The notes under the pieces: generated by a model
What the model was told of the DNA's origin: nothing
Databases searched by the model: none
Seen by the model: only the letters and a program-made list of their open reading frames with translations
Assembly: GCA_004431415.1 (NCBI GenBank)
Contig: QPMI01000629.1
Location: 1 to 64,000 of the forward strand
Length of the DNA stretch: 64,000 nucleotides
Source: Cyanophora paradoxa CCMP329
Lineage: Eukaryota > Plantae > Glaucophyta
Direction of reading: 5' to 3'
Part shown: in pieces, positions 1 to 34,835 of the stretch
Layout of the letters: the number at the start of each line of letters is the position of its first letter
How positions within the stretch are numbered: the stretch's first letter is position 1
Made by a program: the position numbers and the translations under genes

Positions 1-2661
1 CACCGGTGGGTGGTTGCTATTTCGCTACTCCCGAATGGATCGCAAGAAAGAAAGCAACCGTTAACGTTAAGAATATCGACGGACAAGATTGTTTTAAATA
101 TGCTATTTTGGCTCGTCTACACCGAAAGGACATTAACCGCCATAAAAGCTATGATCCCATTCAATATCGCCGATGGCTTAATGAACTGAACTTTAATAAT
201 ATCGAATTCCCGGTAGCATGCGATGCTGATGTTATCGATCGATTCGAAGAACAGAACCCGGACTTATCGGTTAATATCTACGGTGCCGATAACGAAAAGG
301 AGTCATTCTATCCGTTACATATGTCGAGCAATCCACGTAGAAAGAATAAGATTAACCTTTTACTCATCGAAAATACGGAGGAGAATAGAGGACATTATGT
401 AGCTATTGTGTCTCTAAGTCGCCTCCTTAAAACCACGTTTGATAAAGCATGTGATGGACGCATTTATTACTGTGAAACCTGTCTATCACGTTTCCGATCT
501 CAGGCGAAATTAGACCTACACATAGAAGCTAATCGGTGCATCGATTGGAGGGAAAGTAAGGGAAAATGTCCAAAACCCGATACTTACATGGAATTCGGAT
601 TAAAACACCTAAGAAAGACTGTATGGCTTCCTGTGATCTGTTACGTGAAAATCGAAGATCATTCGGTATCTGTGAGTGCAAACAAAACCAAACGGGAAAT
701 TAAAGCTGTGTCACTGAGAGTGGTAATAGGAGAAGAGGTGGTAGCTTTTCATTTTGAGGGAGCCGATCCTTTGGGTTCGCTGTTTGCCAAACTCATAGAA
801 ATTAGACCTCATGTAGTGCAAACCCTATTTAGAAATATTCCCATGCATCCACTCACAGAAGATCAGAAGGCAGAATATAGAACCACAAAGCATTGTTATA
901 TTTGCTTGCAACGATTCACAGCCGAAAACTTTTCGGTTCGCGATCACTGTCACCAAACGGGTGATTATATCGGGAAAGCATGCCGAAACTGTAACCTCCA
1001 TAGGCGAATCTCTAAACAAACAAAGGTAGCTATTGTCGTAGATCAAATGGACGAATGCGGACATGGGATATTCCGAAAATAGCCCAACAAGACGATACGC
1101 TACGTGTGGAGATTCTAAGTAAAAATTTCGATCAGTATCTATCGCTACAATGGGGCATGTGGAAATTCATAGATGCATCGCATTTTATGGATTTCCAAAG
1201 TGCAAATGTCGATGATCTTATGTTTAAATTCGAAGAATTCCGTAAATTGGCGTTTTCTCAATATGGATTAGATCCATGTCATTACGTTAGCGCTCCGGGT
1301 CTATCCTGGGATGCTATGTTAAAACATACAAAGGCAAAGATTGCACTTATCGATGATGTCGACAAATACGAATTTATTGAAAGAGCCATAAGGGGTGGAT
1401 TCGCCACTATGCCCACACGATATGCAAAGGTAGAAAATCCCGATGATCATATTGTTTTATTGGACGCAAATAATCTTTATGGTTATGCACTCAGCCAACC
1501 TTTACCTATTGGTGATTATCGATGGGAAGAAACCACAGAGGCACTGAAAGAAGTAGAAGGACGAAATGCATTTATTGAGGTCGATTTAGAATATCCTATT
1601 TCCCTCGAAGATCATTATGATTTCCCACTTATTGTGAATAAAGAAGTTATCACGACAGATATGTTAGGTGAATACCAACAAAACCTATTATATATGACAG
1701 GCGAAAAATTAACCAAAGATCCACGACTTACAGCAACATTTACACCAAAGACTAACTATGTCATATCACAACCTCTACTTATCTATCTCGTTAAAAAGGG
1801 TGTAGTCATAAAGGCGATTCATAAGGTGATCTCATTCGCTACTTCTTCTTTCATGAAATCTTACATAGCTCTGAATACAAGACTAAGACACGAATCAGGG
1901 AATAGATTCGAAAGCGACTTTTTTAAACTCATGAACAATGCGATATATGGAAAATGCTTAGAATCTTGTAGGGGTCGCTCTTCTGTAAAGATCGCCACAG
2001 TGAGAAACTATGTAAGAAATATGCCGCAAGTCCACTTATCAAAGCAACCAATTATTAAACGAAAACGCCTAGCGTTTGAAATGTATTCGAAACATGTAAA
2101 CTTTAGATAAACCCGTAGCTATTGGTGCTTTCGTTTTGGATTTTGCAAAGTTACATAATTATCAATTCTTTTATGAGGTGGTTAAAAAGAATGGAAACGG
2201 CTAAGCTACTATTCCACGATACCGATTCGTCTGTCTACTACTGAAAACCAATAATCTAAATGCGGACATGAAAGCTATCGGTGAACACCTCGATAGGAGT
2301 AATTATAATCGTGATCATCCATTATATAGTTTGTCGAATCGATTGACTCCGGGGAAGTATAAAAACGAATTCCAAATGCAAAGATCTTAGAATATGTGGG
2401 TTTGAGATCGAAACTTTACGCTTTCAGAACTGAAACCTATGAAAAAATAAAGATGTCCGGCACAGCATCTAAGGAAGTCCATTTGACGATTTTAAGAAAT
2501 GTCTATTCGAAGGTATCACCAAAACAGTAACAGTAAGAAACAAGCGACGGCAAGACCACAGCCTATATGATTTGGAGAGCAGAAGGGTGGCGCTAAACCA
2601 AATCGATAGCAAAAGGAAGATATCAAACGACGGCATTCACAGTGTCCCATTTGGTGTCTGA
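1..2661 (+). CDS. polB: Protein-primed family B DNA polymerase (Polinton-type pPolB), N-terminally incomplete and frameshifted (ORFs 6-1082, 1055-2110, then further frames to TGA at 2659-2661)
   Basis: N-terminal 'VNVKN..D.DCFKYAILA' and 'RDHCHQTGDYIGKACRNCNL' (EndoVII-like insert). Also 'GLDPCHYVSAPGLSWDAMLK', 'IRGG', motif A 'LLDANNLYGYALSQPLP', motif B 'KLMNNAIYGK', motif C 'FHDTDS' (~2212-2229), 'PGKYKNE', 'EYVGLRSKLYA' and C-terminal 'DSKRKI..DGIHSVPFG'. Confidence 0.93.
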
Positions 2662-2983
2662 TACACTGTATCTATACTTCTCTTTTTATTTTTTCGGTCT
2701 CCTAAAAGTAATATACCTCGGAGGATATGTAATAACCATATACATTTTTGAAATGGATCTTTTGGGTCAATTTCGTAGAAATTAGGTATGGGGTTCTCTT
2801 TCCATACTGGGTCGTCCATTATAAATATATCAGAGATTAGTAGGATGCGCACCATCTTAGCGAAAGTATTCCCGTATGAACTTGTCGATATCATAATGAT
2901 CCATTATCATAAGACGTGTCCGAATTGCTTTGATACTCGTATAATCACCAAAGGTAAATGTGGAAAAATTCTTATTTGTATGT

Positions 2984-3259
2984 CTAAAATTTAATCAAAT
3001 ACAACATAATGGTTTCTCTTCTATGACTATTCCCATGTTGTCCTTTTTCTGTATGCGTGAGAGTGTTTCTTAGAACACTGTCGGCAACCTGACCCTTAAT
3101 ATGGTTAAATCCGTAGGTTTGGAACGTTTTATTACATTGTAGGCATCTCACAGATACCTTTTCTTGTGCTTTCTTATAAACAGTGTCGGTATAATCAAAT
3201 TTATCCTTACCATGGACTGACATAGCGGTATCTATAAACTTTCTTGTTTTTTCATCCAT
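2984..3259 (-). CDS. Small DUF723/CapR-like zinc-ribbon protein (module typical of giant-virus/phage endonuclease-associated proteins), probably frameshifted
   Basis: 'KFIDTAMSVHGKDKFDYTDTVYKKAQEKVSVRCLQCNKTF..NHIKG' matches the 'FI.KA..VHGDKYDYS.V.Y....KV.I.C....F...NHL.G' pattern. TCTA motif 15 nt upstream of the ATG. Confidence 0.6.
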   Translation of the reverse strand: MDEKTRKFIDTAMSVHGKDKFDYTDTVYKKAQEKVSVRCLQCNKTFQTYGFNHIKGQVADSVLRNTLTHTEKGQHGNSHRRETIMLYLIKF

Positions 3260-3279
3260 TCCCTATATATACCTTAGAT

Positions 3280-4123
3280 TTATGGTAGCGGATCGCTACC
3301 GCCGACGGGATTGTATAGATTGGTGTTTAGATATTGACCGAATCGGTTAGCTGTTGCGATTGCGTCGTTTCTTTCGGCATACATAATAACTCTATAATTT
3401 CCGAGTTGTGTAGCTCTTATTATAAATTGGTTATCTTGCGTATCTAAAAGAGGTATTGAGTGGAACGCCTGACCGAAATTATCTATGGGGATAATATGTA
3501 TCGTAAGGCGTGGTCTTGCTCCGTCGGTTCTTCTACATAATGCGTAAATGTCCTCTGGTATCGTGTCTCTATATCTATAATGATTTCCTAAGGGTTCTAA
3601 TACATCGGCTACCGCTGTTTGTAAACTAATAATAATCGTATAAATCTTAATAAGGTAAGGCTCATTCATACCTGGGCAATATGTCCTAATTCGTGTGTTC
3701 TCATCATCGGGTTTGGCTGATCATTAACCAAAAGAGGCGCTCCACGATACCACCAACTCGGAGACCATCACCAATGTAAGCGCCTCCCGATCTACATTTA
3801 ATTGCTCCGTTTCTCGATTCATAAGCAAAGTTTGTTACCTTGTTATCATCATTGTAACTATCGGGATCTCCATAAAAAGCGTTAAAGTTTGCATTTGTTA
3901 CAAGGAGTTTCGTAGTTTTCACGATGCCATTGTTTTTATCACATCTTAACTCTTTCAGTCGCAATTTGTGTGTATCACCAAAAGTATTAAGAGTAGGTGC
4001 AAGTTCGGTAGATTCTAAACCATCGACATTATCGATAACGGCATGTTGTAATACGTGATTTGCCGGCGCGGCTAATGAAAGTTGCGCTGTTAAAATACGC
4101 TCAGGAGGTGCGGGTGCCGCCAT
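3280..4123 (-). CDS. Putative virion fibre/spike family paralogue 1 (split into ORFs 3704-4123 and 3280-3669)
   Basis: Colinear with 4143-4985: shared 'LKELRCDKNNGIVKTTKLLVTNANFNA...RSGGAYIGDG.RV.G' and a similar C-terminus ('R.D..A.A......N.NL.N....DP.P'). Confidence 0.65.
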
Positions 4124-4142
4124 TTAATATATTAAAACATAA

Positions 4143-4985
4143 TTATGGTGTGGGATCACCTGGGAACGGATCATCGTAGAAGTTATTTAGGTTGTTATCG
4201 GGATTGAGACCACGTGTAGCCGCCACAGCCGCTGGATCTGTTCGCATTCCGAAAATGAGAATATCGTAACCTCCTACTTCTGTTGTCCAAACATTGAACG
4301 TTGCGGGGTTCTGGTTATCAAATTCCACCCAACCTCTACCGCGTCCGATTCCCTGAACAAAGAAAGTATAAGCCGGTCCGATAATACCATTTTGTGAACG
4401 ACATATAGACTCAATAGATTTAGGAATAGCAATATTTGGTAGTAACCAATTTCCCATAATTCCATCGGGTTGTGTTGCATTTACGTTATCTACCCCAACT
4501 CTGACCATTCCAAACACATACGGATAGTCTCCACACGGAGTATACATACGGATACGTTGCGGATTGTCCGCATGCTCAGGTAGAGTATCGGGAATATCGG
4601 TAACGGCAACGGAGGATGCAAGCATACCCGACACACGACAACCGCCGCCAATAACAGCGCCTCCTGATCGGACAACAGCGGCGGCACGTTCTCCGTCAAA
4701 ATCTAACGTTCTAATATCCACACCCCATGCGTCAGGTTGCCCAATACCCGCGTTAAAATTCGCATTTGTTACAAGAAGTTGAGTCGTTTTAACCACTCCC
4801 GAATTCTTGTCGGCTCGTAGTTCTTTAACACGTATCATGCTGTTTTTATCGAATGCATTCGCGGAATTAGCGCGTTCCGTCGATTCCACACCGCGGATTT
4901 CGTCGGCTACCTCATGTTGTCGAAAGTGAACCGCGGGCGATCCCAATGCGTAAACAGGTAATTGCACACGATTATATTCACCCAT
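4143..4985 (-). CDS. Putative virion fibre/spike family paralogue 2
   Basis: Intact ORF, likely starting at MGEY (4985). Carries the shared N-terminal module 'H.V.D...G.ESTE....F..NSMIRVKELRADKNSGVVKTT..RSGGA.IGGG'. Confidence 0.7.
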   Translation of the reverse strand: MGEYNRVQLPVYALGSPAVHFRQHEVADEIRGVESTERANSANAFDKNSMIRVKELRADKNSGVVKTTQLLVTNANFNAGIGQPDAWGVDIRTLDFDGERAAAVVRSGGAVIGGGCRVSGMLASSVAVTDIPDTLPEHADNPQRIRMYTPCGDYPYVFGMVRVGVDNVNATQPDGIMGNWLLPNIAIPKSIESICRSQNGIIGPAYTFFVQGIGRGRGWVEFDNQNPATFNVWTTEVGGYDILIFGMRTDPAAVAATRGLNPDNNLNNFYDDPFPGDPTP

Positions 4986-5020
4986 TGCTTCTTTTACTAA
5001 GAAGGAAAGAAAAATAATGT

Positions 5021-5296
5021 TCATTGCTCTTCTGTGACATTGTTATACTCGATGCCTTTCTTTACAGTTCCCCTTTGGAATGCCTGTAATACAATCGCTT
5101 CCTTAGAGGTTGGTATCTGAACTCCTGATGAGATGCAAGATTGAATTTCTTTTTGAACAATATCATCGATTGCGATTCTTGCCCTGTTATGAACAACATT
5201 ATCAATCCAATCCTGAACAGAAGCAGCGCAATATTCCATTCCCAACTTTTCAATATCTGAGAGAGCCACTTGGTATATATGGTATATATTCGACAT
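5021..5296 (-). CDS. Small hypothetical protein resembling marine phage fibre-associated proteins
   Basis: Clean 91-aa ORF with upstream TCTA motif. 'MEYCAASVQDWIDNVVHNRARIAIDDIV' resembles small helical proteins found next to tail-fibre/C1q genes in aquatic phages (recognised from memory, not searched). Confidence 0.55.
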   Translation of the reverse strand: MSNIYHIYQVALSDIEKLGMEYCAASVQDWIDNVVHNRARIAIDDIVQKEIQSCISSGVQIPTSKEAIVLQAFQRGTVKKGIEYNNVTEEQ

Positions 5297-5317
5297 TCCT
5301 ATTTTATAGAGAGAAAA

Positions 5318-6340
5318 TTATGTGAGACTGAGAAGCTCACCTGTGAATGTTGTTCGATTTGTGTAGCTACCCCCATTATTTGTTACAAGTGTTACATACT
5401 CACCCATAGCAATGTTGAGAATTACACTAATGTAAAGCGGTTTATTCGTGAGAGTGGAGTTATTTTGTGTTATAATACTTTGACCCCCTGGGTCTTGGTC
5501 ATTTACTTTTAAAGAGAGACTTATTGGATTACTTGATGTTGAGTGGGTATATGCTGTAAATCTGTAATGACCCGCAACAGGAGCTGTGAACCTTCCATTA
5601 GTCACATTGAATCCATCCCTATTATTCAGAAACACTACTCCCCAATTGATAAGTGCAGTTTCACTGGTAGCAACATGAGGATAATTAAGTTGAACAGAAA
5701 ATCGAGGCTGATAGTCATATTTTAAATAACAATTTGTATTAATTGTCAAGCGATTGGTTTCCAGAGTAGCCACAATATCACTGTTGCGTTTCAAAACAAG
5801 ATTCACATTTGCTCCTGTATCGATCTCAGGTGTAACCACCTTGGAAGTTGCTGTTATTATCGATTGTGTTGTTTCTGGAATACTTATGCCTCCATGGGCT
5901 GTTACTGAACCTGTAAATGTGCTTGTTCCTGTAATGTTCACTTGATTGGCTGTTAGAGTTCCATCAATCCTTGCCCCATCTCCAATATATGCCCCTCCAC
6001 TTCTAACTGAAAGAGCAGCATTATTAATTGTATTATCAAAAGTAACTATTTTGGGTGTGGTGAACCCTCCCACATTGTCATAAATTGCTGTATCTGAAAC
6101 AATTTGACCTGATTGGACTTGGTTCTTGTTAGATACAATGAGACCTGTGGTTCTCACTTTTCCCCCATTGCGATCACATCGAATTTCTTTACATCTAATC
6201 ACAGAGTTCTGTGAAAACGAATCAGCCCCTGTTGTTTCTGTGCAAATAAACCCAGGTGTTGCATCTGTTACTGTATGGTTCAGTTGATGTATTTTTGGGG
6301 CGGCATAACAGAAAACAGGAACAGCAATTTGTGTAGACAT
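5318..6340 (-). CDS. Fibre family paralogue 3 with C-terminal C1q/TNF-like head
   Basis: Shared N-terminal module, beta-rich shaft, then the C1q signature 'PRFSV...INWGVVFLNNRDGFNVTNGRFTAPVAGHYRFT...GEYV...TFTGELL'. Confidence 0.8.
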   Translation of the reverse strand: MSTQIAVPVFCYAAPKIHQLNHTVTDATPGFICTETTGADSFSQNSVIRCKEIRCDRNGGKVRTTGLIVSNKNQVQSGQIVSDTAIYDNVGGFTTPKIVTFDNTINNAALSVRSGGAYIGDGARIDGTLTANQVNITGTSTFTGSVTAHGGISIPETTQSIITATSKVVTPEIDTGANVNLVLKRNSDIVATLETNRLTINTNCYLKYDYQPRFSVQLNYPHVATSETALINWGVVFLNNRDGFNVTNGRFTAPVAGHYRFTAYTHSTSSNPISLSLKVNDQDPGGQSIITQNNSTLTNKPLYISVILNIAMGEYVTLVTNNGGSYTNRTTFTGELLSLT

Positions 6341-6362
6341 TCTTTATACTATACAGATAATA

Positions 6363-7430
6363 TTATGTAGCACTAACAAGATCACAAGAAAGATAGTATC
6401 TGATATCAAATTGAAGAGTGGCACCAGAACTATTGCGCATATCAAAGGAGTCACCTTGAATAAGAGAAAGTAAAACTTCAAATGAAATTGGAGTTACAAA
6501 TGTATTAGAAATCCCGCGGACGGCATTGAAACCCTTGTTTGGAGGTTGTAGGATTTCCATTTAAATAAATGCTGGTAGCAATATGAGTATAAGAGGTTGT
6601 GCCAGCTCTCATGCATGCAAAGAACACCCTATATACTCCGGAAACAGGAGCTGTAAATTTTGTGGATGAAAAGTTTCCTTCATTGTTTACAAGATAAGCT
6701 CCACCTGTAAAGGAAAATGCTGTTGCATTGTTAAGTATTACTGTCCCTGTCAAACTAGGAGCTTGTCTTGATATATTCATTCTTGGGCAATAGGTTCGTT
6801 TCAGACCACTATTTTCCGGATTGTGATTACATTCAGATCTGTTATTGTCTTTTCGAGAGTGAAAATGGTATTTCCGTTTCGTTTGTAATTCATATTCACA
6901 TTTGTCCCATTGTCTATCTCAGGTGTTTGAACTCTTGTGGTTGCTTTTCGAGTTTCAACGCTAACAGTTCCCGAGAGTCCACCATTGAAGGTCATCAATC
7001 CTGTAAATGAACTTGTTCCATTCACATTAAATTGATTTGCTATGACAGTCCCCACCACAATTGCTCCATCACCAATGTATGCCCCTCCACTCTTGACCAC
7101 AAGAGCCGAGTTATTACTTGTGTTATCAAAAGTAACTATCTTTGCTGTGGTGAATCCACCCACATTATCATATATTGCTGAATCGGGGACTACCTGCCCT
7201 GCTTGAACTTGATTTTTATTCGAGATTATAATGCCTGTGGTTCTAATCTTGCCTCCATTTCGATCACATCGAATTTCTTTGACTCTGAGTATACTATTCT
7301 CTGTGAAAGAGGTATTGCTTGAAGTTTCTGTGGAAATATACCCAGGGGTTGAATCAACTACTCCATGAGAGGTGCTGTGAAGTGATTTTGCGGCGAGTTC
7401 ATAGTTTGGGATTTCTAATAGAGAGGTCAT
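6363..7430 (-). CDS. Fibre family paralogue 4 with a divergent C1q-like head (frameshifted: 6801-7430, 6505-6780, 6363-6560)
   Basis: N-terminal half highly similar to 5318-6340 ('KEIRCDRNGGK.RTTG.I.SNKNQVQ.GQ.V.D.AIYDNVGGFTT.KIVTFDNT'). Head contains 'FSSTKFTAPVSGVYRVFF' and 'LLSLIQGD'. Confidence 0.72.
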
Positions 7431-7449
7431 CTTTATAATTACGAAATAG

Positions 7450-10400
7450 TTAAATTGCGACAGCAATGTAATGGATTGTTACAGTTTTGGCTGTATTGTC
7501 CATTGCATATGGATCAGTGAAAAGTTCACATGTGAAATAGTCACTGTAAACATTTAACAGGTTCACAGTAAATATGACTGGTGTTGTAGCATTTGCCTGT
7601 CCTTCATGCCTTACTGTTGCTGTCACAACAGGAGGAGAAGCAAAGGCACTACTGAAATAGATGGTAAGATTGAACACATATAAATTATTGTAGTTCAAAA
7701 CAGGAGTAGTGTAAACATACTTTCCTGCTTTTATTTTCCCATTAAAATACGCATTGAGTTGACTGGATAGATCCGCTTCTGTAATGCATCTACTGATAGT
7801 CTGATTATTTGAAGGGTTCATAGCATAAAAGTTTCTTGCATAGGCATTTCCACGAACAAGTAAGGTCTTATCAAAGTAATTTTGCGAATTGTGGAAGAAC
7901 CATGTTTCTTCAAACATAGGTCCTGCTGGTTCTACAATCTGACCTGATCCTACATACATTGTGTTGTTCGCTCTGATGGTGGTAGCTGTGAATGGATCAA
8001 GAGTTGGTTTATTGGTCAGGTCATTGTAGTTGCCCGAAAAAATCGCTGGTTTGTTATAAATATCTGTATTCCAATCATGAGTGTGTGCAAAATCTGTAAT
8101 CTCTGCCTTTGTGTGGGTGTGACCTACATACGCAACATTTCCAAGATCTGTAATCTCTGCCTTAGTGTGGGTGTGACCTACATAAGCAACATTTCCGAGA
8201 TCTAATATCTCTGATTTAACATGAGTGTGAGCGAAATTAGTAATATCTGCTCGGGTATGGGTGTGTGCAAAATCTGTGATTTGGGATTTGGTGTGAGTGT
8301 GTGCAAAATCTGTGATTTCTGCCTTTGTATGGGTGTGTGATCTATTATTAAGGTCGAGGAAACTACCTGAAAATGCAACAGGATGTAGATTTGCTGCGGT
8401 GGGTTTATTAATTAGATCATTGTAGTCTCCTGTGAAAGAAATGGTTTTAGCTCTCCCCTTCCTACATAATCAGATGGTAGATCAATCTTTATAGGCATAA
8501 TAGCTGGATCGTCAGGTATCACATACTCACCTCCTGGATGAACCACAGGGAAGGTTTGATTACATTCAGTATGGACAAAAAGTTACATGCCGTTACTGTT
8601 CCATCAATAATCCCACCTGTTAGCGGAAGGTAATCACCTGTTACACCAATATTTATACCTGCAATGATTGTATCAAGTTCTGTTTCATCTATGTAGTTCT
8701 GGGCTTGTAGGTAATCTTCTGTAACAATTCTTGAAATTGTTTCATTGTGGATGTTTTTCGCTGAGGCTCTCTGATTGATTTCTAAGAGACCCTCACCAAC
8801 TCCATCATTATAATTTGTTTTTATCCATGATATCTCGCATCTCTTGTAGTCATCTCGATTTCCAATAAGAGCATTTGGTAACAATCTCTCTCTGGTGAAT
8901 ATTAATTTGGGTCTTGAACTATCTAAGTCACTTACATCAGTAACATTAATTTGGATTGCTGCATCTTTGTCATCATAGTTTGCTGGATCAGATGGAAGCG
9001 ATAATATTAAACTATCTGTCATTGGGATGTCATCAGCATAGTAGCTTGTCAGATAGATACCTGGTTTGGTGTCCATCAAACCGAAATTTCCGCCTGCTGC
9101 AATCATCTGCATTCTTGTGGGGGGTCTAATGTATAATTCGCCTTCCATTGTGGTGCCTGCATCTATTCCTTTTCGATTCACATAATATTCATCTAATCTT
9201 AATCTCTCTGGTATGGTATTACTTTGATAGAGAGTAACACCATGTGTGGTGTCGAATACATCACCTGCTGATGCAAACTTAGGCTGGTCATCTATTTCGC
9301 TCCACATGTGCCTATGGCAAAATCCTCGATCTCATCTTTGGTATGGGTGTGGTTTGATATCCAATCTAAAACAACATTAGAAGTGGGATGATGTGGTAGG
9401 TTTGCTTCTATATTCACAGTCAAATAATCGACGACTAAGTTGCTGGAATAAAGATTACTTGCCCAAAGGTTACTGGTGTAAATGTTACTTCCATAAATAT
9501 TACTTGCCCATATGTTACTTGTCCATATGTTACTTGCCCATATGTTACTTGCTGAAATGTACTTGTATAAATGTTACTTGTGACTGTAAGGTTTGTATCA
9601 TTTTTTATCACGAATAGTGAAAGAATATTAGTAAGTTCGCCTTCATCAATGTATCCCTGTTCTTCTAAATAATCTTCCGTTACCACTCTTGAAATATCTT
9701 CATTGTGTATATTTTTGGCGCTTGCTCTTTGATTGATTTCTAATAAACCTTCACCAACTCCGCCATTATAATTTGTTTTTATCCATGCTACCTCACATCT
9801 TCTATAATCATCTCGATCTCCTATAAAAGTATTAGGTAAAAGACGCTGCCGACTAAATACTAATTTGGGTCTCGATTGGTCAAAGTCGCTAACATCTGTT
9901 ACATTAATTTGTATTGCTGCGTCTTTGTTATCGCAACTATTTGGATCTAATGGAAGTGACGGTAGCGGAGGTAATACATTTGTCATCTCGATATCCTCAG
10001 GATAGTAGCTTGTTAAATAAATTCCGGGTTTCGTCTCATACAGACCAAAATTACCACTAATTGGTAAAATGCCTTCTCTTCTGGTGGTCTAATGTATAAT
10101 TCGGCTTCCATTCCTGTGCCTGCCTCTATTCCCATGCGATTAAGGTAGTGGTCATTTAATTGTAATCTTTCTTCTATGTTAATATTTCTATAAAGACTTA
10201 CGCCATGTTGGAAATCTGTTAATACATTTCCTGCGGATGCGAAAGTAGGTTGCTCATCGATTTCGTCCCAATTATGCCTATGATCTGCTGGTGGAAATTC
10301 AGTAGGTATGTTATCTAAATCTTCCCAATCGTGCCTATGCTCTGTCGGTGGGAATCTTTCCGGTTTGTTTAAAATGTCTTCCCATTCGTGTTCGTGGGGA

Positions 10401-11634
10401 TCTGGTGGAATGTGTCGGGTTTGTTAATAATATCCCTCCAATCTACGGTAAAATCGAAAAATCCCGGCTGTAATCCATCTGGTAATAACTCTTCATCTGG
10501 TATATGCGGCTGTTCGTAATCTATGTTAGGTGGATTTAATCCATGTGGTAAAAGTTGTTCGTCGTAAGGTTCGTAACGATCATATAACATATGGTTAGGA
10601 TCAAATCCATCCGGCAATTCTTCCACGTCTTCACATTCTTTATGTTCGAGAGGTATAACATTAATATCTGGTGCTAAGAGTTCCTCAGCGGGCGGTTTGT
10701 AATCTTTAAAAACTGGTTTATTATGGACTTTTTCCCAACTAACAAAATGCTGCCCAAACGCAACCGTTTCATCCGCTGTGTATTCTCTTCCTGGTTGTTT
10801 CTTTGGTGTAAGATCTGGTGGATCCCATGGAAGTGGAAAGGGAACCGGAGTAGGTCCGTAATGCTCTATGATCTCTCTTATGGTTTTCTCACTAACGAGC
10901 CGTTCCCCATTTGCATAAACATTACTACCATGAATATTTCGCCATTGTCGGGTTCTAATACCAAGGTCTTTCGTATTGGTTACCAAAGGTAGTAAATGCC
11001 GATCCATTTCGACAAGATCGGGATGTAAATGTATAGCTACTGGTTGACTGGGACTACTGTCGACAGTGATCGAATCTTTTTCTTTGGAAGTATCCGGTGG
11101 AAGAGTGAAACCAAACAGTGCATTAGTGTTTGAATTGGTGACAATGTCCTGTGGGTAAATATTATTGGTGTAGCGAATCTGATTCTCTTCACCATGTGGG
11201 GCTACCTGTAATATCTGAGGGATTTGTGTAATCGCATTTGATCCTTCATTATAGATTCTCAAACCGCTACGATGAACTCCCTTCTCATCCTGGACATTAA
11301 AAACCAAACGTCCGCTATCATAACGTGTGGGAATATCGGGATGCGTTCCACTTGCTTTAAGTTTCCGTGGTCTCCTTCTTGTTGCCTTGATCTCCGCAAC
11401 CGCGTTTTTTTTTACATTCCCCAAACTGAAAGCTATACTTACATCTTCTTTTTCTGGGTCTGTTTGATTCACTGTTAAAGCATGAATTCTGGGATGCGTC
11501 TTACTGGGTTTATCGGCGCTCTGATCAATTGACGCCGACCCTTTAATGGTGATATTATCAAAGTTAACATGTTTAGTGTTTCCTTTACCACTACCTGTTA
11601 TGGTTTGTAAATTTGCTGGATAATTGAAACTCAT
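7450..11634 (-). CDS. Giant phage-tail-fibre-like protein (~1,400 aa if joined), broken by frameshifts; H-type lectin/gp53-like C-terminal tip
   Basis: Fragments join across 1-nt shifts. Motifs: 'P..TNTKDLG...QWRNI', 'W.DI.NKP..FPP..H.H' repeats (10270-10445), a duplicated ~200-aa module, QVTYG pentapeptides, 'HTHTKAEITDF' repeats (8075-8340), and C-terminal 'IYFSSAFASPPVVTATV...VNLLNVYSDYF...IHYIAVA'. Confidence 0.68.
8075..8345 (-). repeat. Coding tandem repeat of HTHTK(A/S)(E/Q)ITD(F/L) units (phage tail-fibre HxH repeat)
   Basis: Recurring 'gtgtgggtgtg...aaatctgtaatctctgcc' units, about seven copies. Confidence 0.8.
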
Positions 11635-11683
11635 CCCTGGTTACTCTAATAATAGAGATTTATTAAATTTCAATAAAGTAAAG
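11635..11683. promoter_or_regulatory. Bidirectional viral promoter between the giant fibre gene and the patatin gene
   Basis: 49-bp divergent intergenic region. TCTA lies 18 nt upstream of the fibre ATG, and TAGA..ATTAAATT..AATAAaGTAAAG-ATG precedes patatin. Same layout as 15054-15097. Confidence 0.6.
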
Positions 11684-13218
11684 ATGCCCTTACGCGTAGT
11701 TTTAGCATTGTCCGGCGGCGGCGCACGTGGTATTATCATAACAAGGTTGTTAAAAGAAATAGAAACAAGAACGGGTAAACGCGTTATTGATTTGGTCGAT
11801 CTTGTAAGTGGAACGTCCACAGGCGGTATTATCGCTATCGGTCTCAATGTGAAAAATCCCGAATTTCCCGATGAACCTAAATTAACAGCTACCGACCTTC
11901 ACAATACTTACCTATATCATCTTCCTCTCATCTTTGCGAATCCGCGGAATATCATAGAGAATGCACTTTTCAATACTAAATATGATGTATCACCATTAGA
12001 AACCGCTATTTCTCTGTGACTGGGGAAGCTCTCATAAAAGATTCACTAAAAGATGTGGTTATTACGACGTTCGACACTGTAAGCATGAAACCAATTTTCA
12101 TAGCAAATGATAATGATTACAAGACTATACCAAGTAAAATAGCGGCACGTTCTACTTCCGCCGCTCCTACATATTTTGCTCCTGTCGATTACAACGGCAT
12201 GTGTCTAATTGATGGTGCTATATCAGGTAACAATAACCCAAGTGTTTGTGGTTATAGTCACGCAAAAAAGATTTATGATAACGATGACGATATTATAGTT
12301 ATTAGCATATCATGTGGTGAGGTTAACGAAACCGACGCACCAAATGTGGGTTACTCTTACGAAAGTGTGAATACCTGGGGTATTCTTTCATGGATTGCTT
12401 CCACCTCAGGGAGTCCATTAATCAATATGCTAATGGCTGCAAGTGAATTATCGGCTCTTGAAAAGATGCAAGAGTTTTTACCATATAATGATGACCAAGG
12501 ATACGCGCGATACTACCGTATCTCTGTGCCGCTTCCGAAAGATATCTTAAACTCCCTCGATGATACTTCTAAGATTCCAGACATGATCGCGGCGACTGAA
12601 ACGTATATACAAGCAAACGACGCCATGATAGATCGACTCTGTGAGTTACTTGTTACAAACTATGAGATTAAGAACCCTGTAAGATCCTATGTATCATCCA
12701 CCCTTAATAACATACCTCCTATCGATGCTAACTGGTATCTTCTATCAGATAATGCGTTTACCGCTTCTTCTGCAAAATTCGGAAAAGAGGCATTTAAAGC
12801 CCGCCCATCATTAACTGGATGGGAAGCGAATGCATCCGCAATTAACGGAGTATGGGAAACGCCTACTGAATATTTGCAAATAGCCTTCCCATATACATTT
12901 GAGGTCGCTTCTATAATTGCATATGGTTCAGGTATAACAACTGCGTTTATTAAGACTTTCAATGTTGCGACATCGCAAGATGATATAACATGGTCATTTA
13001 TCAAATATGAGGGTGTAAATAGAATGTTTGTATGTGAGAATATAAATAATGCTAATAACTCTGGGGATGTATCATATGCTATGGGGTTCCCACTTTCGGT
13101 AAATGATGTATTTTACATAGGTTATCCATTGAGAACACGATATATACGTATTTATCCTTTGGTATATATAAATGCTCCGACTATGAGAGTCGATGTTACG
13201 GGCGCATTTATACGGTAG
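11684..13218 (+). CDS. Patatin-like phospholipase fused to a C-terminal F5/8 type C (discoidin) domain; one frameshift near 12016
   Basis: Oxyanion 'LSGGGARG', nucleophile 'GTSTG', 'STSAAPTYF' and catalytic 'IDGA'. C-terminal discoidin motifs 'EYLQIAF', 'SQDDITW', 'RTRYIRIYPL...MRVDVTG'. Confidence 0.9.
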
Positions 13219-13401
13219 AAAAACGAGGGATTTTTTTCCGATTTTTTGATTATATATATGTATATGTATATATAATAATATTATTTATTATTTTTTCCAA
13301 ACATTTTGTTCTCGGTCAAACGGCATTACGGAGGTTTTGGTATATATAGTGTAAATATGTCGTGTATATATGGTGTATATATGTCGTGGGAATTTCGGAC
13401 A

Positions 13402-13530
13402 TTTCAGGACGATGGGGGGATGATTTCAGGACAATGGGGGGATGGTTTCAGGACGATGGGGGGATGGTTTCAGAACAATGGGGGGAAATAGTCAGAACAA
13501 TGGGGGAAATAGTCAGAACGATGGGGGAAG
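13402..13530 (+). repeat. G-tract minisatellite, 6 x ~21-22 bp (tcag(g/a)ac(g/a)atGGGGG(G)a...)
   Basis: Directly visible between the convergent patatin and integrase genes. Confidence 0.85.
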
Positions 13531-13775
13531 AAACCCAAAGAAACCAAAAATTCCAAGAAATTCATACAAACTGCTATAACTCTTCACCAACTGATCGCCT
13601 TTCAAAACCGCGACCATCGCCGGAATCCTCTTTTCATCCTCTACGCATCTAAGCTACTTCCGGGAACTGGATCGTAGATTTACCCGGGTTTGAGGTGCTG
13701 TATATGTCTCTTTTGAGGTCTGGAAGTCTGTATACCATCTCTGGCTGTTGACCTCTGATAGCTTCTGGGTTCCTG

Positions 13776-15095
13776 CTATGACCAACTTCTTAATTTCACG
13801 CTCCGCCTTCCTTTCTTCTTAGTTCTGGCTTGTGTTAGCGGTTCTTCTGGGACATCATCCGCTTTTTCGATGCCTTCCTTTCGTATCGCCGCATCCACAC
13901 GCGCTTCTTCTTTGGCTTGTTCTAATGCATCACCTGTGGGCGCCTCATGATACTCTACACCTTTGATAGGTAACAGTTCGTGGAAAGCAAACCTTCCATC
14001 GACCAATTCACCATTCGGATTTCGTAACCGAAACTTAAAACCCTCCCTACCCTCGACAGTATAAACGATCCGCGACCAATTGACACCCTGTTTAGCGAAT
14101 GGGTTCTTTTCTATTCTCACCCGCACAAACATACCCTTTTGAATACCGTCTAAGTAAGCCATCGACTTCTTAAACTTCTCGTCTTCTAAACCTATGATCT
14201 CTCTATAATGCTCATCTGTGGTTTCTGCGGGTTTTCTCTTAGTCGCTGAATGAACAGTATGATTATAATTATACTCAATGTCACCCAATACATCGAAAAA
14301 TCGCGCTGTGTTGTTTGCTATGCAATAGTTCGTAATAAGCCGCTTGATCTGCTTGTTAAACGCTTCAATTCTACCCTGACTACGATGATCTGCGACATCG
14401 CTAATCTGATGATCGATGAACTTCTTAGCAAGGTAGTTAGTGAACACCGTATTCGTAAATTCGCTCCCGCTATCACTTTGGACGCGTGCGATAGGTCGAG
14501 GGACTCTCTTTTGTAGCTGTTCGAAAGCGGCAAGAGTCGTAATAGCGCTCTTATCTCTCATCGGAATAATATAACCTGTTCTAAGCGTTGATTCCATCGC
14601 GGACATAAACGTATCGTATCCGTCATTTTGCTTCTTATAAGCCGGGAAAAACAGAAGATCTATAACATAGGTATCGAGAGGTTGCCTAATTGGTATCATC
14701 GGGTCTCTCTTTCTTGAAAGGGTAGGCGCGTTAATCTGAACGACTTCCTGTTTATCATACCATTCTTTCATCTTCTTATAGTCTTCATCTGGTAACTCCT
14801 TCCTCATAGCTCCGAAACCCTTGTATCCGGTGCGCGGATCGTAAAACTTCTTAGCAATCTTAGATTCTTTCGTTACAGTATCAGTAGGCAATGCCTCCGG
14901 GATCAGTTCTTTAACTATCTCAGACTTCTTTAAAATTCGTGTGTTTTTCTGTTCTATCGGAATGGTTATAGGTAGCATGTTACCCTGATCTTCTTTCATG
15001 CTCTTCTTTACGATCTTTGGAGTGGGTCTTAATCCTATCTGTGCTGACGGCATCTTTACCTTATTTCCGTAATTTAATTTTTCTATATAATTCAT
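13776..15095 (-). CDS. int: Retroviral-like DDE integrase (rve, Polinton type); true start probably the ATG at 15053
   Basis: 'YVIDLLF' (D1), 'VQSDSGSEFTN' (D2), 'QGRIEAFNKQIK' (E), 'YNHTVHSATKRKP', SH3-like 'GMFVRVR...F.K....WS..VYTV'. ORF intact; no chromodomain seen. Confidence 0.93.
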   Translation of the reverse strand: MNYIEKLNYGNKVKMPSAQIGLRPTPKIVKKSMKEDQGNMLPITIPIEQKNTRILKKSEIVKELIPEALPTDTVTKESKIAKKFYDPRTGYKGFGAMRKELPDEDYKKMKEWYDKQEVVQINAPTLSRKRDPMIPIRQPLDTYVIDLLFFPAYKKQNDGYDTFMSAMESTLRTGYIIPMRDKSAITTLAAFEQLQKRVPRPIARVQSDSGSEFTNTVFTNYLAKKFIDHQISDVADHRSQGRIEAFNKQIKRLITNYCIANNTARFFDVLGDIEYNYNHTVHSATKRKPAETTDEHYREIIGLEDEKFKKSMAYLDGIQKGMFVRVRIEKNPFAKQGVNWSRIVYTVEGREGFKFRLRNPNGELVDGRFAFHELLPIKGVEYHEAPTGDALEQAKEEARVDAAIRKEGIEKADDVPEEPLTQARTKKKGRRSVKLRSWS

Positions 15096-15097
15096 AA
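15054..15097. promoter_or_regulatory. Bidirectional viral promoter between integrase and AdoMetDC
   Basis: TCTA 12 nt upstream of the AdoMetDC ATG. On the other strand, TAGA..ATTAAATT..AATAAgGTAAAG-ATG precedes the ATG at 15053. Confidence 0.6.
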
Positions 15098-15499
15098 ATG
15101 AACCATCGGGGCTTCCATGTGATGTTAGATTACAAGTTTTCGAGTCCGCTAATTACGGGAGTGGACAACTTAGAGACCACAACAAAATGGTTAATGCACT
15201 TTTTACAAGATATTATACAAGAACAAGGTATACGAGTAGTTCACAAGCATTACGAGATTTTCGATGGTGGTCTTTCACCTCCGGGTTTTACATTAGTTCT
15301 CCTATTAGATGAGAGTCATTGCACCGCTCATTGTTACTCAGACGAGGGCATGTTAGCCATCGATATATTCAGTTGCGGAAGGGACGCGGAGGGAAAGACA
15401 TGTAATATATCATCGTTAATAGAAGAGAGGATAATAGGTATCTTTGGTGGATCTCCTAATACGGAGAGACATAAAGTATCGAGATTTCCGACACGGTAA
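15098..15499 (+). CDS. speD: S-adenosylmethionine decarboxylase proenzyme, short prokaryotic (class 1B SpeD/SpeH-like) type
   Basis: 133 aa. 'G.H.MLD' start and 'PPGFTLVLLLDESHCTAHCYSDEGMLAIDIFSCG', containing the E|SH pyruvoyl self-cleavage site and the SCG motif. Confidence 0.9.
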   Translation: MNHRGFHVMLDYKFSSPLITGVDNLETTTKWLMHFLQDIIQEQGIRVVHKHYEIFDGGLSPPGFTLVLLLDESHCTAHCYSDEGMLAIDIFSCGRDAEGKTCNISSLIEERIIGIFGGSPNTERHKVSRFPTR

Positions 15500-15548
15500 T
15501 AAGTGGTAAAAGAAGATGTAACAGGTTAATTAATTGTTTTTCAGTGTG

Positions 15549-15641
15549 GTGTTACAGGTGTTACAGGTCAATCCCAAAGTTCCAAGCCGCCGACCTCCTC
15601 CTAGGGGAAAGTTTGGGATGAACCTGTAACACCTGTAACAC
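15549..15641. repeat. ~35-bp inverted repeat (hairpin) downstream of AdoMetDC
   Basis: gtgttacaggtgttacaggtcaatcccaaagttcc ... ggaaagtttgggatgaacctgtaacacctgtaacac, with a ~20-nt loop. Confidence 0.85.
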
Positions 15642-15985
15642 ATACCATTATCAGTAAGAACCCATTAAAATAACATAATATCAGTCATAAAATACTATAA
15701 GTAATCATAAAGTATCATCAAGTATCATATATTATCCTTGTTGTATTATACACCCCGCGCTCCATACAGCACATTGTAGCTGTTTTAACACAATCGCGGC
15801 GCCATATCCGCTCCATATATGCTACGCATTTAATCGAGAAAGTACATTTTATTATTTTTCGACGGAATTCCGTTAGAATTTCATACATATTTCTTTTGAT
15901 ACATTTTACATATTTTACATATTATTCATTCACAATGCATACACATATTATTTCCATATCATTATACACGATAATGCGTAATATC

Positions 15986-16282
15986 ACACATAGACAATGC
16001 CCGCGTTTTATCAGGAGGCGTGATATAATTTATCTAAGTTTAAAATCCACCTCAAATACAAGTGATTACGAGAGATAGAGGTAAAATACATCGGAGATAC
16101 GAATACATTAAATTTCAGTAAGGGATACGTTAGTATTATATATGAAATACGCACATAAAAGACAAGAATAAAGGATAAAATACACATAAATTAACGTTAA
16201 ATATGCAAGAAATATAGGTAAATTATAAACAAATTATAATTAAACTTAGCCGAGGGATAAAACGCGGGCATTGTCTATGTGT
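15986..16282. repeat. Perfect 27-bp inverted repeat pair marking the viral right terminus (15986-16012 / 16256-16282)
   Basis: acacatagacaatgcccgcgttttatc and its exact reverse complement; GC-rich host DNA begins at 16283. Confidence 0.88.
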
Positions 16283-17767
16283 CACGCGACTAGCGCAAGA
16301 GGCGTGACCGCTGTCGGGCAGAGCCGAGCTACGTGGCTGCGTTGCGCTTGCGCCGAATCGCGGAGGGGGGGGGCAAGTGGCAGGGGGGGTCCGTAAAAGA
16401 CTTTCGGACTCTCCATTGTGATTGGCTGGGGCGTGCGGCGTCCTCCTACGCGACCGTGCTCGCGCCCGGCCTCACTCTTGCAGTACGGAATGTCTGGCAT
16501 AATGCAAGCATCCACTTCGAACTGGTCTGGTCCGTATATCTGCTCCCTGTGCGTCGCTGGACCTGGTTTTGTCCCGGGTGTTGGTGCCTGTTCCTGGGTC
16601 ACCCTTTGGTCGGACGGGACCGGGCGACATGGTTTCGGGGTCTCCTTGGGATGGGCTGTCAGGATGTACAGCGCGGCCCGGGTTTTGAGGAGGTCGGGAA
16701 AACAGGATTTGCGGTAGGGTTGGGCCCGAAGGAGAGGGACAGGGGAAGTGTTTCTCCCTTCCCCAACTAGTGTTCTGAAGGCGACTCGGTAGACTACAGC
16801 TCAAACACCAGCTCGACATCTCCGGGATCCTCCGGATCCTGCAGTCAGAATCCCGGGATCCTCCTGCAGTCAGCATCCCAGTATCCGATAGGCGAGGAGC
16901 GGGGGACTAGTACTGTTGTCAAGTGTGTACAGTACAAATGCGCATGCGACCGTCGGGCAGGCTTTCCAAAAAAACTAGAGCTTTTCCACAGGGTATCGAT
17001 TGATGCATGCGCAGGGGAGGCACAATCTCCAACTTGGCAACTGCGCATGCGTCTTTCAAAGTTTCACCCTAGTCATGCAGATCAAGACTCTGAGACACAA
17101 ACTGGCTGTATGTTGCAATATTAATATTCGAATTCATCGATTCAATGATTGTTTTTGCATACAAGTCCACACTCACGTGTGGTAGCACTGCCAATGATGG
17201 TCTGGTGCAGCTGCATTCGCATGCGCAGCTTTGGAGTAGGCCGGGCCCTACGTACGACAGGCTGTCGGGCGAAAAGCAGCGGGCTGCGGGCCGCCGCCCG
17301 CCGCGCCCGCGTCCCCGGGGCCCTTCAAGGCTTTCGGCGAGCCGCGCCGCCGCTCCCGGCCCCGGGCGCGGGGCGGGGTCCCCGGGGGTGGCCGGGCTCG
17401 GCGCGGTGGCGCGGCTCCCCTCGCGGGCGGGGGGTTCGCGGGGCTTAACTTGCTGCGGCTCGGGGCAGGGCGTAGGGTAGGGTGGGCGGCGGCTCGGCTC
17501 TCGGGAGAATGATCAGCCGGGAGGGCATCCGATCATCGGATGATCAGCGCGTCGAGCTCGCGCGCCATACTATGATTGAAATTTCCCTGAGGGGAGGTAC
17601 CCGGTGACCGGTCCTGGGTTCAACGGTTCGAATTCGAGCTTCAAGACTTGAGGGAAGATTTTAATTTTCAAACTCTTTCCTGAGGCCCTGAGGGGAGGTT
17701 CGAGCTTGAGGTTCGAGCTCAGCGGCTTTAATTTGAGGGGAGGTTTTTGGGTTGAGCGAAAAGGGTG

Positions 17768-17901
17768 GGTCCTCGCGGCCCGGCGCGTCTACAAAGCGTG
17801 CGGAATGCTTCTTCTACATCTCGAATGCGTGTCCTATTGCTCTGCGCGCGCGCCGCAGCCTGGGCGCGCGGAAAGTTGCTCGGGTCTGTGCAGGATCGAA
17901 G
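17768..17901 (+). repeat. Dispersed ~135-bp host repeat, second diverged copy at ~24881-25013
   Basis: 'gtcctcgcggcccggcgcgtc..caaagcgtgc.gaatgcttcttctacatctc...gcgcggaaagttgctcgggtctgtg.aggatcgaag' appears in both places. Confidence 0.7.
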
Positions 17902-18222
17902 TTTTGCGTTAACTGGGTCCTCGCGCTCTGGCGCATCTTCGAATTCCGAGCGCGCGCAACGCTTTGTTTACATCTCTTATGCATGTACTTGGGGAAGGAC
18001 CCCCTTCCCCTTCCCCCACTTGGGGGTGTTCGGGTGCCCACCCTAGGCCAAAATGAAATGTCCCGACCTCCCAAAACCCAGGTTTTCTCGCCGGATCCTA
18101 GCAAGCCATGTCCCTAGGAGTCCGGAAACGTGTTCCGGGAGATCCGGATCCCGTCGGGTCGACCAGGAATGAGCAATAACACATTTTCAAAAAAAGTGAT
18201 CTAGCGCCTCACCAAGTGGCGG

Positions 18223-18825
18223 TTAACTCACTCGGCTTATTTCTCGCGCGGGTAAGACTCTGAGATCTAGATCAGGATCGTATGCTGGAGATATCTGATT
18301 TGAATATACTGCCGGCCGTACACTCTAGGTGACTACAATTGGATGCCTGTAAACGATCAGGGGGCTGCACACGAGGCTAAGGTCTGTGACTAGACCGACA
18401 GCTACGAGGGTGCTGGCCTCTGGGCGCCTCAAGGGACGGTGTGGGCGGGAAACGCGAAATTGAGGCGGCTCGGGCGCCGCGCTTGCGTGCGAAAACGCGT
18501 ATGGGTACGCTAGTACAAGTTGACTACCTGAATCAAATTCGGAACTTGAAGTTTAGACTGCGAAACGGGGCTCGAACAGCCGGCTCGCTAACCTCAGTAA
18601 ATCTACTTTACTACCCATTAACTCACTCGGCTTATTTCTCGCGCGGGTAAGACTCTGAGATCTAGATCAGGATCGTATGCTGGAGATATCTGATTTGAAT
18701 ATACTGCCGGCCGTACACTCTAGGTGACTACAATTGGATGCCTGTAAACGATCAGGGGGCTGCACACGAGGCTAAGGTCTGTGACTAGACCGACAGCTAC
18801 GAGGGTGCTGGCCTCTGGGCGCCTC
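18223..18825 (-). repeat. 3' B1-A2-B2 split direct repeat block (B ~208 bp twice, A ~168 bp)
   Basis: 18223-18430 = 18618-18825; 18451-18618 = 23185-23352 (identical on reading). Confidence 0.92.
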
Positions 18826-20618: not shown

Positions 20619-20769
20619 GGGCGTGGGGCGAGGCGGGGCGGGACGCCTGGGAGGAGCTCGTCGACATCAAAGTCAGGGACCTCAATGGAGAAAGGCGGCG
20701 GCGGCGGCGGCGCCCTGCCCCGGCGAGGAGGCGCGGCCCGGCTTCCGGAAGGCCCGAGCCTTGAGCACC

Positions 20770-23177: not shown

Positions 23178-23184
23178 GGGGCTG

Positions 23185-34798: not shown

Positions 34799-34835
<37 letters not shown>

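Follow-up and report, generated by a model that had tools for sequence, protein, structure and literature searches.

The first 16,282 bp of the 64,000 bp stretch of DNA analysed here (the window) belong to an endogenous DNA virus of Polinton type that is present in many copies, and form its right-hand part. In full, our reading, to which we give a probability of roughly 70%, is of a multicopy endogenous virus of Polinton type that probably inserts by an rve integrase, has a protein-primed DNA polymerase without proofreading motifs, and carries what is likely an arginine decarboxylase and not an S-adenosylmethionine decarboxylase (AdoMetDC). The window begins within the polymerase gene (pPolB) and holds the right-hand 16.3 kb of the element (Table 1). 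Its host is probably a glaucophyte alga, Cyanophora or a close relative, judging from the named matches to a domain shared by the fibre genes and from domain combinations as published for Cyanophora PLVs. The original prediction, made from the DNA letters, was partly confirmed in what it observed and partly supported in how it interpreted this.

Table 1. Features of the element in the window
Feature	Position	Strand	Remarks
Polinton-type protein-primed DNA polymerase, 3' part	1..2655	+	vOTU Cys/His, Zn finger, endonuclease VII-like insert, palm; several frames
Small Zn-finger/endonuclease-like gene remnant	2984..3259	-	phrog_4605 E 1e-5, phrog_681 E 2e-4; matches L013 ORF
Shared N-terminal domain + head of unknown family, gene in two frames	3280..4123	-	Colinear with intact P0023, pieces 62% and 49% identical
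Intact 293-aa gene, shared N-terminal domain + unknown head related to P0023 head	4143..5024	-	
91-aa protein	5021..5296	-	35%-identical homologue after C1q-like gene, same order, on T4-type phage contig
Intact 340-aa fibre: shared N-terminal domain, beta shaft, C1q head	5318..6340	-	PF00386 E 4e-10; Foldseek C1q E 1e-9
Paralogous fibre, C1q/BclA-like head, three pieces	6363..7430	-	74% DNA identity to 5910-6265
Long fibre, probably one gene (~1,390 codons), several pieces	7450..11634	-	PF12789 E 1.6e-9 in two stretches; PF09458 E 5e-4; tail-fibre PHROGs
Patatin phospholipase fused to F5/8 discoidin domain	11684..13218	+	GGGxRG, GTSTG, DGA motifs; one frame break near 12.0 kb
G-rich tandem repeat, 21-22 bp	13401..13529	.	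Between converging genes
rve integrase, intact	13776..15095	-	D146-D208-E244; PF00665, phrog_956
Class 1b pyruvoyl decarboxylase, intact	15098..15499	+	S73, H78, C93 kept; HCYSD replaces HTWPE; likely L-arginine decarboxylase (SpeDA type)
Inverted repeat, 33 nt	15549..15641	.	91% complementary
Right terminal region	15986..16282	.	Final 28 nt recur inverted at 15986-16013, 27/28 identical

Composition and right terminus

The G + C content is 0.392 for positions 1-16282 and 0.627 for 16283-39400, and a change-point scan placed the best break at 16262. The rightmost base of the element is exactly 16282: in both of two runs, two 43-nt high-depth contigs end there, and other contigs of the same runs continue past it into differing flanks. 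The composition step and these contig ends bear out the proposed AT-rich island with a defined terminus. Of the terminal features expected of a Polinton (terminal inverted repeats and a target-site duplication of 5-6 bp), the right terminus is sharp and common to the copies, and the left end lies beyond the window. The terminal 29-mer had no exact match in metagenome contigs, and Rfam and ARAGORN gave no matches in the window. Colinearity with homologues and gene spans covering about 93% of 1-15499 are consistent with the element being intronless, as had been proposed.

Polymerase and integrase

Profile searches identified the predicted pair of pPolB (PF03175, E 1.6e-13) and integrase (phrog_956, E 3e-11; PF00665, E 5e-4, under the Pfam cut-off), the latter with all three residues of the DDE triad of Polinton integrases. 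The integrase query found no confirmed relative in IMG/VR and, in metagenomes, one distant Polinton-like contig (L089). The first ~220 codons of the polymerase, including the TP region, lie upstream of the window; the vOTU Cys/His and palm motifs within it align with those of eight relatives, as in a protein-primed PolB.

The ExoI and ExoII motifs are absent from the polymerase, with about 90 residues deleted, and the same holds for the intact relative P0035. Among the other full-length polymerase matches, an ExoI-like motif was present in 62/63 and an ExoII-like motif in 63/63, and the spacing across the region was 123-207 aa (54 of the 63 measurable) versus 32 aa here. The ExoI region of the window lies inside a 701-nt contig that has no differences from it at a depth of 520. 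The polymerase thus has no proofreading motifs, and copying without proofreading is predicted.

The polymerase also bears on whether the element is a mavirus-type virophage, a reading that is hardly tenable. Mavirus-type virophages likewise combine pPolB with rve, and mavirus pPolB keeps just an exonuclease remnant (PMC11071308, in the part available). They differ, however, in polymerase family and length: the best polymerase matches are Polinton-type with PF02945, the intact relative has 1083 aa where a mavirus-type pPolB is short, and the combination of ~1,080 aa and an endonuclease VII insert is that of Polinton/alpha-adintovirus enzymes. Moreover, eight IMG/VR relatives carry Polinton-type gene sets (in L002 an MCP, PF21738, E 7e-56), and MCP-VIR is 0 for glaucocystophytes in Table S6 of PMC12220804. 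Genes for a virophage MCP, penton, protease and S3H helicase would lie beyond the window. Of the label 'Polinton/virophage-like' the first half is supported and the second is not. Exonuclease loss here and in mavirus looks convergent, the tree containing no mavirus.

No match to capsid, penton, ATPase or Ulp1 protease was obtained with 14 capsid-module queries in the window, which starts inside pPolB. It is quite unlikely that the element is capsid-less or helper-dependent and lends its fibres and enzymes to particles of other copies or of a different PLV family resident in that genome. Such dependence would agree with the capsid module missing from the window, with a Polinton MCP counted just twice among 156 glaucocystophyte elements, and with contigs hinting that the genes of other copies stand in a different order (joint 2836/15073); but the same Table S6 counts 97 minor-capsid and 139 Pox_A32 genes (PMC12220804, as far as available), an 8-kb fibre block would be costly without a particle, and the left part of the element is simply beyond the window.

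Fibre cassette and patatin-discoidin gene

The cassette of fibre-like genes, put at about 8 kb in the original prediction, occupies 8355 bp (3280-11634), wholly on the minus strand, and shows C1q, PTR and H-lectin domains together with tail-fibre PHROG matches. Four of its genes share a new N-terminal domain and have differing heads, two of C1q type and two unknown; this domain is likely a capsid anchor. The long fibre is laid out as an N-terminal domain, acidic/Pro repeats, a duplicated ~300-aa unit, pentapeptide repeats, PTR repeats and a C-terminal H-type lectin.

One of the four fibres was predicted to be trimeric. Residues 1-210 of the 340-aa fibre gave a homotrimer prediction score of 0.84, versus 0.00 for the best of three controls; this mark was reached by 21/30 solved homo-pairs and 0/23 single chains and is a rough guide for three copies. 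Between prediction runs, 93% or more of the contacts agreed (pLDDT 70-73); resemblance to phage fibres of solved structure may explain the high score. The monomer model was confident in the C1q head only, and the AlphaFold model of the 293-aa ORF had no usable fold (pLDDT 31.5). By its order after a C1q-like gene, the 91-aa protein is a possible fibre assembly helper.

The shared domain had eight matches, and the only named ones were Cyanophora paradoxa EukProt entries, just 26-31% identical and from related elements. Neither this domain nor the patatin query had a confirmed relative in IMG/VR, and the ESM Atlas returned only weak or unnamed phage clusters. The proposed lipase-lectin fusion was recovered by profile search as patatin plus F5/8 domain, and an elaborate entry module on an endogenous Polinton-type element is supported.

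A decarboxylase of SpeD fold

The polyamine enzyme had been called AdoMetDC. Its SpeD fold was upheld (PF02675, E 3e-12), and the Ser, His and Cys of self-cleavage are present; the substrate was probably misassigned, and on its sequence relationships the enzyme is probably an arginine decarboxylase of SpeDA type. This reading follows from the missing HTWPE proline, the MGII relatives and a speY/speB neighbourhood that matches the assayed group. The protein scores 46 bits against TIGR03330, below the cut-off of 75.65. It retains another proline (SPPG), and we infer that the diagnostic SpeDA proline is that of HTWPE.

The GTDB loci were ranked with patterns drawn from the subfamily of the window protein itself, and the best 80 of 542 confirmed loci all came from MAGs of marine euryarchaeotes/Thermoplasmatota, those with a finer name being Poseidoniales/MGII throughout. 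The HxxP proline occurs in 0/80 of them; 78/80 have a deoxyhypusine-synthase-like neighbour and 13/80 an agmatinase-like one. In the tree, a clade of 30 rows with support 100/100 unites the window protein with homologues from MGII, PLVs and giant viruses, and the protein groups with MGII/Poseidonales homologues beside speY/speB; members of that group are assayed arginine decarboxylases (PMC10407285, as far as available).

Alternatively, the small gene could encode a genuine AdoMetDC; by consuming SAM and producing its decarboxylated form, the enzyme would lower host CpG methylation and let the element escape silencing. The PF02675 match and the catalytic residues would suit this, as would reports that C. 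paradoxa has 32% mCG with repeats and viral genes silenced (PMC12344493, in part), that the C2 protein of a geminivirus counters methylation by stabilising plant SAMDC1 (PMC7248346, in part), and that class 1b AdoMetDCs have been validated in two eukaryotic viruses; an AU test also did not reject grouping with 10 proline-bearing phage proteins (p 0.256). Against it stand the absent proline, the sub-threshold TIGR03330 score, the speY/speB neighbourhood of the relatives, and BLAST scores of 92-116 bits to 80 MGII proteins but 39-50 bits to 70 proline-bearing viral proteins. Since the enzyme grouped with SpeDA, we regard the anti-methylation reading as decidedly improbable. Literature searches found no paper joining Polintons with S-adenosylmethionine decarboxylase and no relevant passage joining them with arginine decarboxylase.

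Copies, empty site and frameshifts

A search for other copies had been advised, and depth together with several flanks at the shared terminus showed the element to be multicopy. In run X1, element contigs had depths of 350-940 and the terminal 43-mers 992 and 521, versus 141-147 for the single-copy flank (rough ratios). The element was present in 20 runs from 19 studies under one organism label. A bacterial or phage contaminant contig was rejected, because the element is multicopy, has several GC-rich flanks and adjoins a eukaryotic Ngaro retrotransposon.

In run X1 the insertion site is empty: there the flank continues, at the depth of single-copy DNA, into other host sequence. This suggests recent movement. 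Five genes are frameshifted, a point missed in the original prediction: pPolB, with no fewer than five changes of frame, the patatin gene, the long fibre and two of the smaller fibre genes. Of the 12 of 66 indel rows listed, 11 are single bases absent from the window, and the same defect is seen in the single-copy flank; the frameshifts are probably mostly long-read consensus or assembly errors. Because only 6/11 missing-base sites lie in a same-base run, some breaks may be real decay. One RNA run touched 9/30 bins and is uninformative on expression.

We think it unlikely that the family is real and mobile while this copy is dead through true frameshifts, or that its junction with the flank is an assembly misjoin. 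The breaks in five genes, the flank arrangement in run X1 and the lack of a contig bridging 16282/16283 among the 16 of 42 pieces listed speak for one or the other; yet the junction falls exactly on the terminus common to other copies and shares no homology with the sequence of the empty site, nearly every indel is the loss of a single base, a defect that the flank shows too, and the integrase, the decarboxylase and two fibre genes are intact.

Comparison with known elements

The proposal of an undescribed lineage with unusual cargo was largely not borne out: fibres, discoidin-patatin and AdoMet_dc counts all appear in the available part of PMC12220804 (2025). There, phage-like fibres are common in PLVs (section 13), PTR-PTR-H_lectin occurs in a Cyanophora paradoxa PLV, discoidin-patatin fusions occur in glaucocystophyte PLVs, and Table S6 counts 66 AdoMet_dc, 89 lipases, 85 rve and 49 PF03175 for the glaucocystophyte elements. 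With the fibre and lipase cargo already catalogued, the headline is ordinary. As the window shares with those Cyanophora PLVs/EVEs the PTR-PTR-H_lectin fibre, discoidin-patatin, rve, a PF03175 polymerase and a PF02675 gene, it probably belongs to the same family. Table S6 shows 0 in every protease column for glaucocystophyte elements; on this point the term 'PLV' would fit better than strict Polinton.

In the same source, as far as available, PF02675 figures as a table column without substrate analysis (elsewhere in Table S6, 45 in Rhodomonas PLVs and 27 in Cryptomonas PLVs), and exonuclease loss, a shared fibre N-terminal domain and insertion polymorphism were not met; 'C1q' has no occurrence in its text and supplements. 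A literature search found no earlier report of the arginine decarboxylase reading/HCYSD, the polymerase exonuclease loss, the shared fibre N-terminal domain or the empty site.

Like group 1 Polintons/alpha-adintoviruses (PMC8502044; Krupovic 2024, PMC11071308, in part), the element has a vOTU-bearing pPolB with an endonuclease VII insert and an rve integrase; unlike them, it has lost the exonuclease motifs, carries a far larger accessory block and resides in a non-animal host. Alpha-like PolB and integrase were reported in Cyanophora contigs (Starrett 2021, PMC8502044), and the main text of PMC10120064 does not mention Cyanophora. With SpeDA of MGII/Poseidonales, Gimesia and Nannochloropsis (Li 2023, PMC10407285, in part) the decarboxylase shares the class 1b fold, the S/H/C set and the lack of the HTWPE proline. 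It is 38-52% identical to MGII-type proteins beside speY/speB, the likeness to assayed SpeDA being one of group and description. In contrast to SpeDA systems, the gene stands alone, without speB or speY, in a eukaryotic DNA virus.

Proposed life cycle and significance

In the life cycle that we propose, pPolB would start synthesis at the ends from the terminal-protein domain that it carries, and would copy DNA without proofreading, and capsid, penton and ATPase genes, presumably upstream, would package the DNA. Fibres would decorate the particle: a single long one with PTR and H-lectin domains, and four short trimeric ones that have one probable anchor domain in common and exchangeable heads. 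Patatin-discoidin would attach to glycan or membrane and cleave phospholipid during entry. The decarboxylase, after self-cleavage at E72-S73, would convert arginine to agmatine, giving polyamines for replication or DNA packaging, and the integrase would insert new copies.

A broader proposal, which we put forward tentatively and at somewhat below even odds, is that MGII-type pyruvoyl arginine decarboxylases, mislabelled AdoMetDC, form one clade common to the small and the giant DNA viruses of algae and would be the first of their kind in eukaryotic viruses. By the same proposal, the glaucophyte lineage has a second, independent proofreading-less pPolB, presents interchangeable trimeric heads on a single new anchor domain and continues to insert in cultured cells. 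Pyruvoyl arginine decarboxylases are described, in the sources as far as available, in phages and cells only. If the PF02675 genes encode arginine decarboxylases, an accessory gene frequent in PLVs has been misannotated. If the loss of proofreading is real, this Polinton polymerase of full length would be a further exception, besides mavirus, within family B. An empty-site polymorphism would offer a culturable alga for watching PLV integration, in a lineage where the major capsid protein has largely escaped recognition.

Genetic make-up of the element

Pfam and PHROG scans of the element (1-16282) revealed a type B DNA polymerase (pPolB) that contains an endonuclease VII-like insert, together with an rve integrase and patatin, F5/8, C1q, PTR, H-lectin and PF02675 domains. 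The G + C content is 39.2% in 1-16282 versus 62.7% in 16283-39400, and the shift is best placed at 16262. These data bear out the original prediction of pPolB and integrase in an AT-rich island with patatin-discoidin cargo and about 8 kb of fibre-like genes; the fibre block measures 8355 bp, on one strand throughout. The window opens within the polymerase gene, at a point matching residue 219 or so in an intact 1083-aa relative, and 14 queries from relatives found no capsid, penton, ATPase or protease match in the whole 64-kb window. The CpG observed/expected ratio was 0.34-0.56 in the four fibre ORFs at 5318-9307 versus 1.1-1.6 in the pPolB, integrase, patatin, decarboxylase and 3280-5024 genes, a compositional mosaic which suggests a swapped block.

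The pPolB gene has at least five frame changes, and four other genes are broken into pieces. Among 12 indels listed (54 further ones lie beyond these), in 11 the window lacks a single base, in many cases where a gene is broken; a same-base run was present at only 6 of these 11 sites, and single-base loss was also found in the single-copy flank. The frameshifts are probably mainly consensus error, with real decay possible for some.

Host and related elements

A profile search with the N-terminal domain common to four fibre genes retrieved 8 proteins among 1.84 billion representatives; of the six looked up, the only named ones were Cyanophora paradoxa entries, with 26-31% identity to the window fibre. 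The available part of PMC12220804 describes discoidin-patatin fusions in glaucocystophyte PLVs and a PTR-PTR-H_lectin combination in one C. paradoxa PLV. The host is therefore probably Cyanophora (probability roughly 0.85), and both family and cargo, predicted to be an undescribed lineage and unusual, are already in print there. We conclude that the element is a real glaucophyte Polinton/PLV that has probably already been catalogued. For 156 glaucocystophyte elements, Table S6 of that paper counts rve 85, PF03175 49, lipases 89, AdoMet_dc 66, Pox_A32 139, mCP_bulzu 97 and no protease; the Polinton-type MCP (MCP-POL) is counted just twice, versus 139 for the ATPase. The major capsid protein of this lineage may have gone unrecognised so far.

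Terminus and insertion site

Words of 8001-18000 were present at 57-69% in 20 runs from 19 studies, all under one organism label. In DNA sequencing run X1, depth was 141-147 in the single-copy flank and 350-940 in element contigs; two 43-nt contigs (depths 992 and 521) stop exactly at 16282, and others continue from 16282 or 16283 into differing GC-rich flanks. Therefore, the terminus is exact at 16282, as predicted, and the family is multicopy, with very roughly ten ends of this type. A 1010-nt contig in X1 and in a second run, X18, holds just the 46 terminal bases (16237-16282) between unrelated flanks; it is a lone terminus left as a relic at another genomic site. Contigs in all three DNA runs (depth 396-803) join 2836 and 15073 on opposite strands with a short side of only 28-34 nt, hinting at family members with the integrase after the polymerase region.

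In X1, 16283-16420 lies on a 183-nt contig (depth 147) with 44 different bases ahead of it; X18 has no cover there. None of the matches listed (16 of 42 pieces) bridges 16282/16283, and this junction may be an assembly misjoin. The simplest reading is an insertion that is present in the assembled line and missing from X1.

Downstream, 18223-23352 (-) is a retrotransposon with a gag-like ORF and RT/RNase H, which we take to be of the Ngaro type from its repeat layout: split direct repeats pair 18451-18618 with 23185-23352 and 18223-18430 with 18618-18825, both at 100%. No tyrosine recombinase ORF was recognised within it. At 26648-37214, a 4.4-kb direct duplication (99%) occurs together with a 1.8-kb inverted repeat (96%). 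The stretch 39435-64000 consists of a ~615-bp unit repeated in tandem about 40 times (~98% identity), in which GC-rich coding-like parts alternate with AT-rich intron-like parts, and is possibly a giant repetitive surface-protein gene.

DNA polymerase

The best polymerase matches were Polinton-type, the named ones coming from coral, dragonfly and snail genomes, and the IMG/VR relatives carry Polinton gene sets. The window polymerase retains the vOTU Cys/His and palm motifs; ExoI and ExoII can no longer be recognised, and a stretch of some 90 residues ahead of ExoIII is missing. Among the 63 other matches of at least 1000 aa (out of 119), a pattern search found ExoI in 62 and ExoII in all 63, with a motif spacing of 123-207 in the 54 where it was measurable. 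The intact relative P0035 (46-50% identity over two main pieces) likewise has neither motif, and in both the spacing is 32; a quick tree of 27 rows made them sisters (SH-aLRT 100). The ExoI region lies on a 701-nt contig with 0 differences at depth 520, so the loss is one of the lineage. This loss would be convergent with that in mavirus.

Fibre genes

In the four genes the shared domain, of ~120 aa, is followed by C1q or unknown heads, and in relatives by a C1q head or yet another head; it would serve as a capsid anchor. The C1q head resembles C1q domains of known structure (E 1e-9). Residues 1-210 predicted as three copies gave a trimer score of 0.84 versus 0.00 for the best control, a mark reached by 21/30 solved homo-pairs and 0/23 single chains and only a rough guide for three copies. 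Prediction runs had 93% or more of their contacts in common (pLDDT 70-73), and the high score may stem from resemblance to fibres of solved structure. Behind the C1q fibre lies a 91-aa gene; in a T4-type phage contig, a 35% homologue of it likewise follows a C1q-like gene (identified by motif, with no Pfam match), which supports a phage derivation of the module.

Decarboxylase

The decarboxylase retains S73, H78 and C93. It has HCYSD where solved AdoMetDCs have HTWPE, and scored 46 on TIGR03330 versus a cut-off of 75.65. A GTDB scan, whose patterns favoured the protein's own subfamily, gave 542 loci; the best 80 (38-52% identity) all came from MAGs of marine euryarchaeotes/Thermoplasmatota, assigned to MGII/Poseidoniales wherever a finer name was given, and none had the HTWPE-position proline. 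A deoxyhypusine-synthase-like gene adjoins 78 of these 80 and an agmatinase-like gene 13. A 30-row clade (100/100) united the protein with MGII-type sequences, four PLV-like contigs and giant-virus contigs; grouping it instead with 10 proline-bearing phage proteins was not rejected by the AU test (p 0.256).

Proline-less decarboxylase genes in PLV-like metagenomic contigs
Contig	Position	Placement
L010	5367-5741	same clade as window protein
L014	157-531	same clade as window protein
L015	3869-4243	same clade as window protein
L016	885-1259	same clade as window protein

These four genes lie near capsid-like genes and an A32 ATPase (below cut-off in L010), and primase genes occur in L010 and L015.

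As far as the available part of PMC10407285 goes, MGII/Poseidonales homologues encoded next to speB and speY act as arginine decarboxylases, and a proline that never varies in true AdoMetDCs is absent from SpeDA proteins; the likeness of the window protein to assayed SpeDA is drawn from that description. Judged by motif, score and MGII-type clade, the predicted AdoMetDC identity probably does not hold, and the protein is quite likely an arginine decarboxylase. Phages have pyruvoyl arginine decarboxylases and two eukaryotic viruses true AdoMetDCs, according to the part of PMC9992855 available; a direct name-pair search found no literature link of polintons to either arginine decarboxylase or S-adenosylmethionine decarboxylase. 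To the published family the element thus brings modest, testable additions: a likely arginine decarboxylase, a polymerase without proofreading, a modular fibre domain and an empty-site polymorphism.
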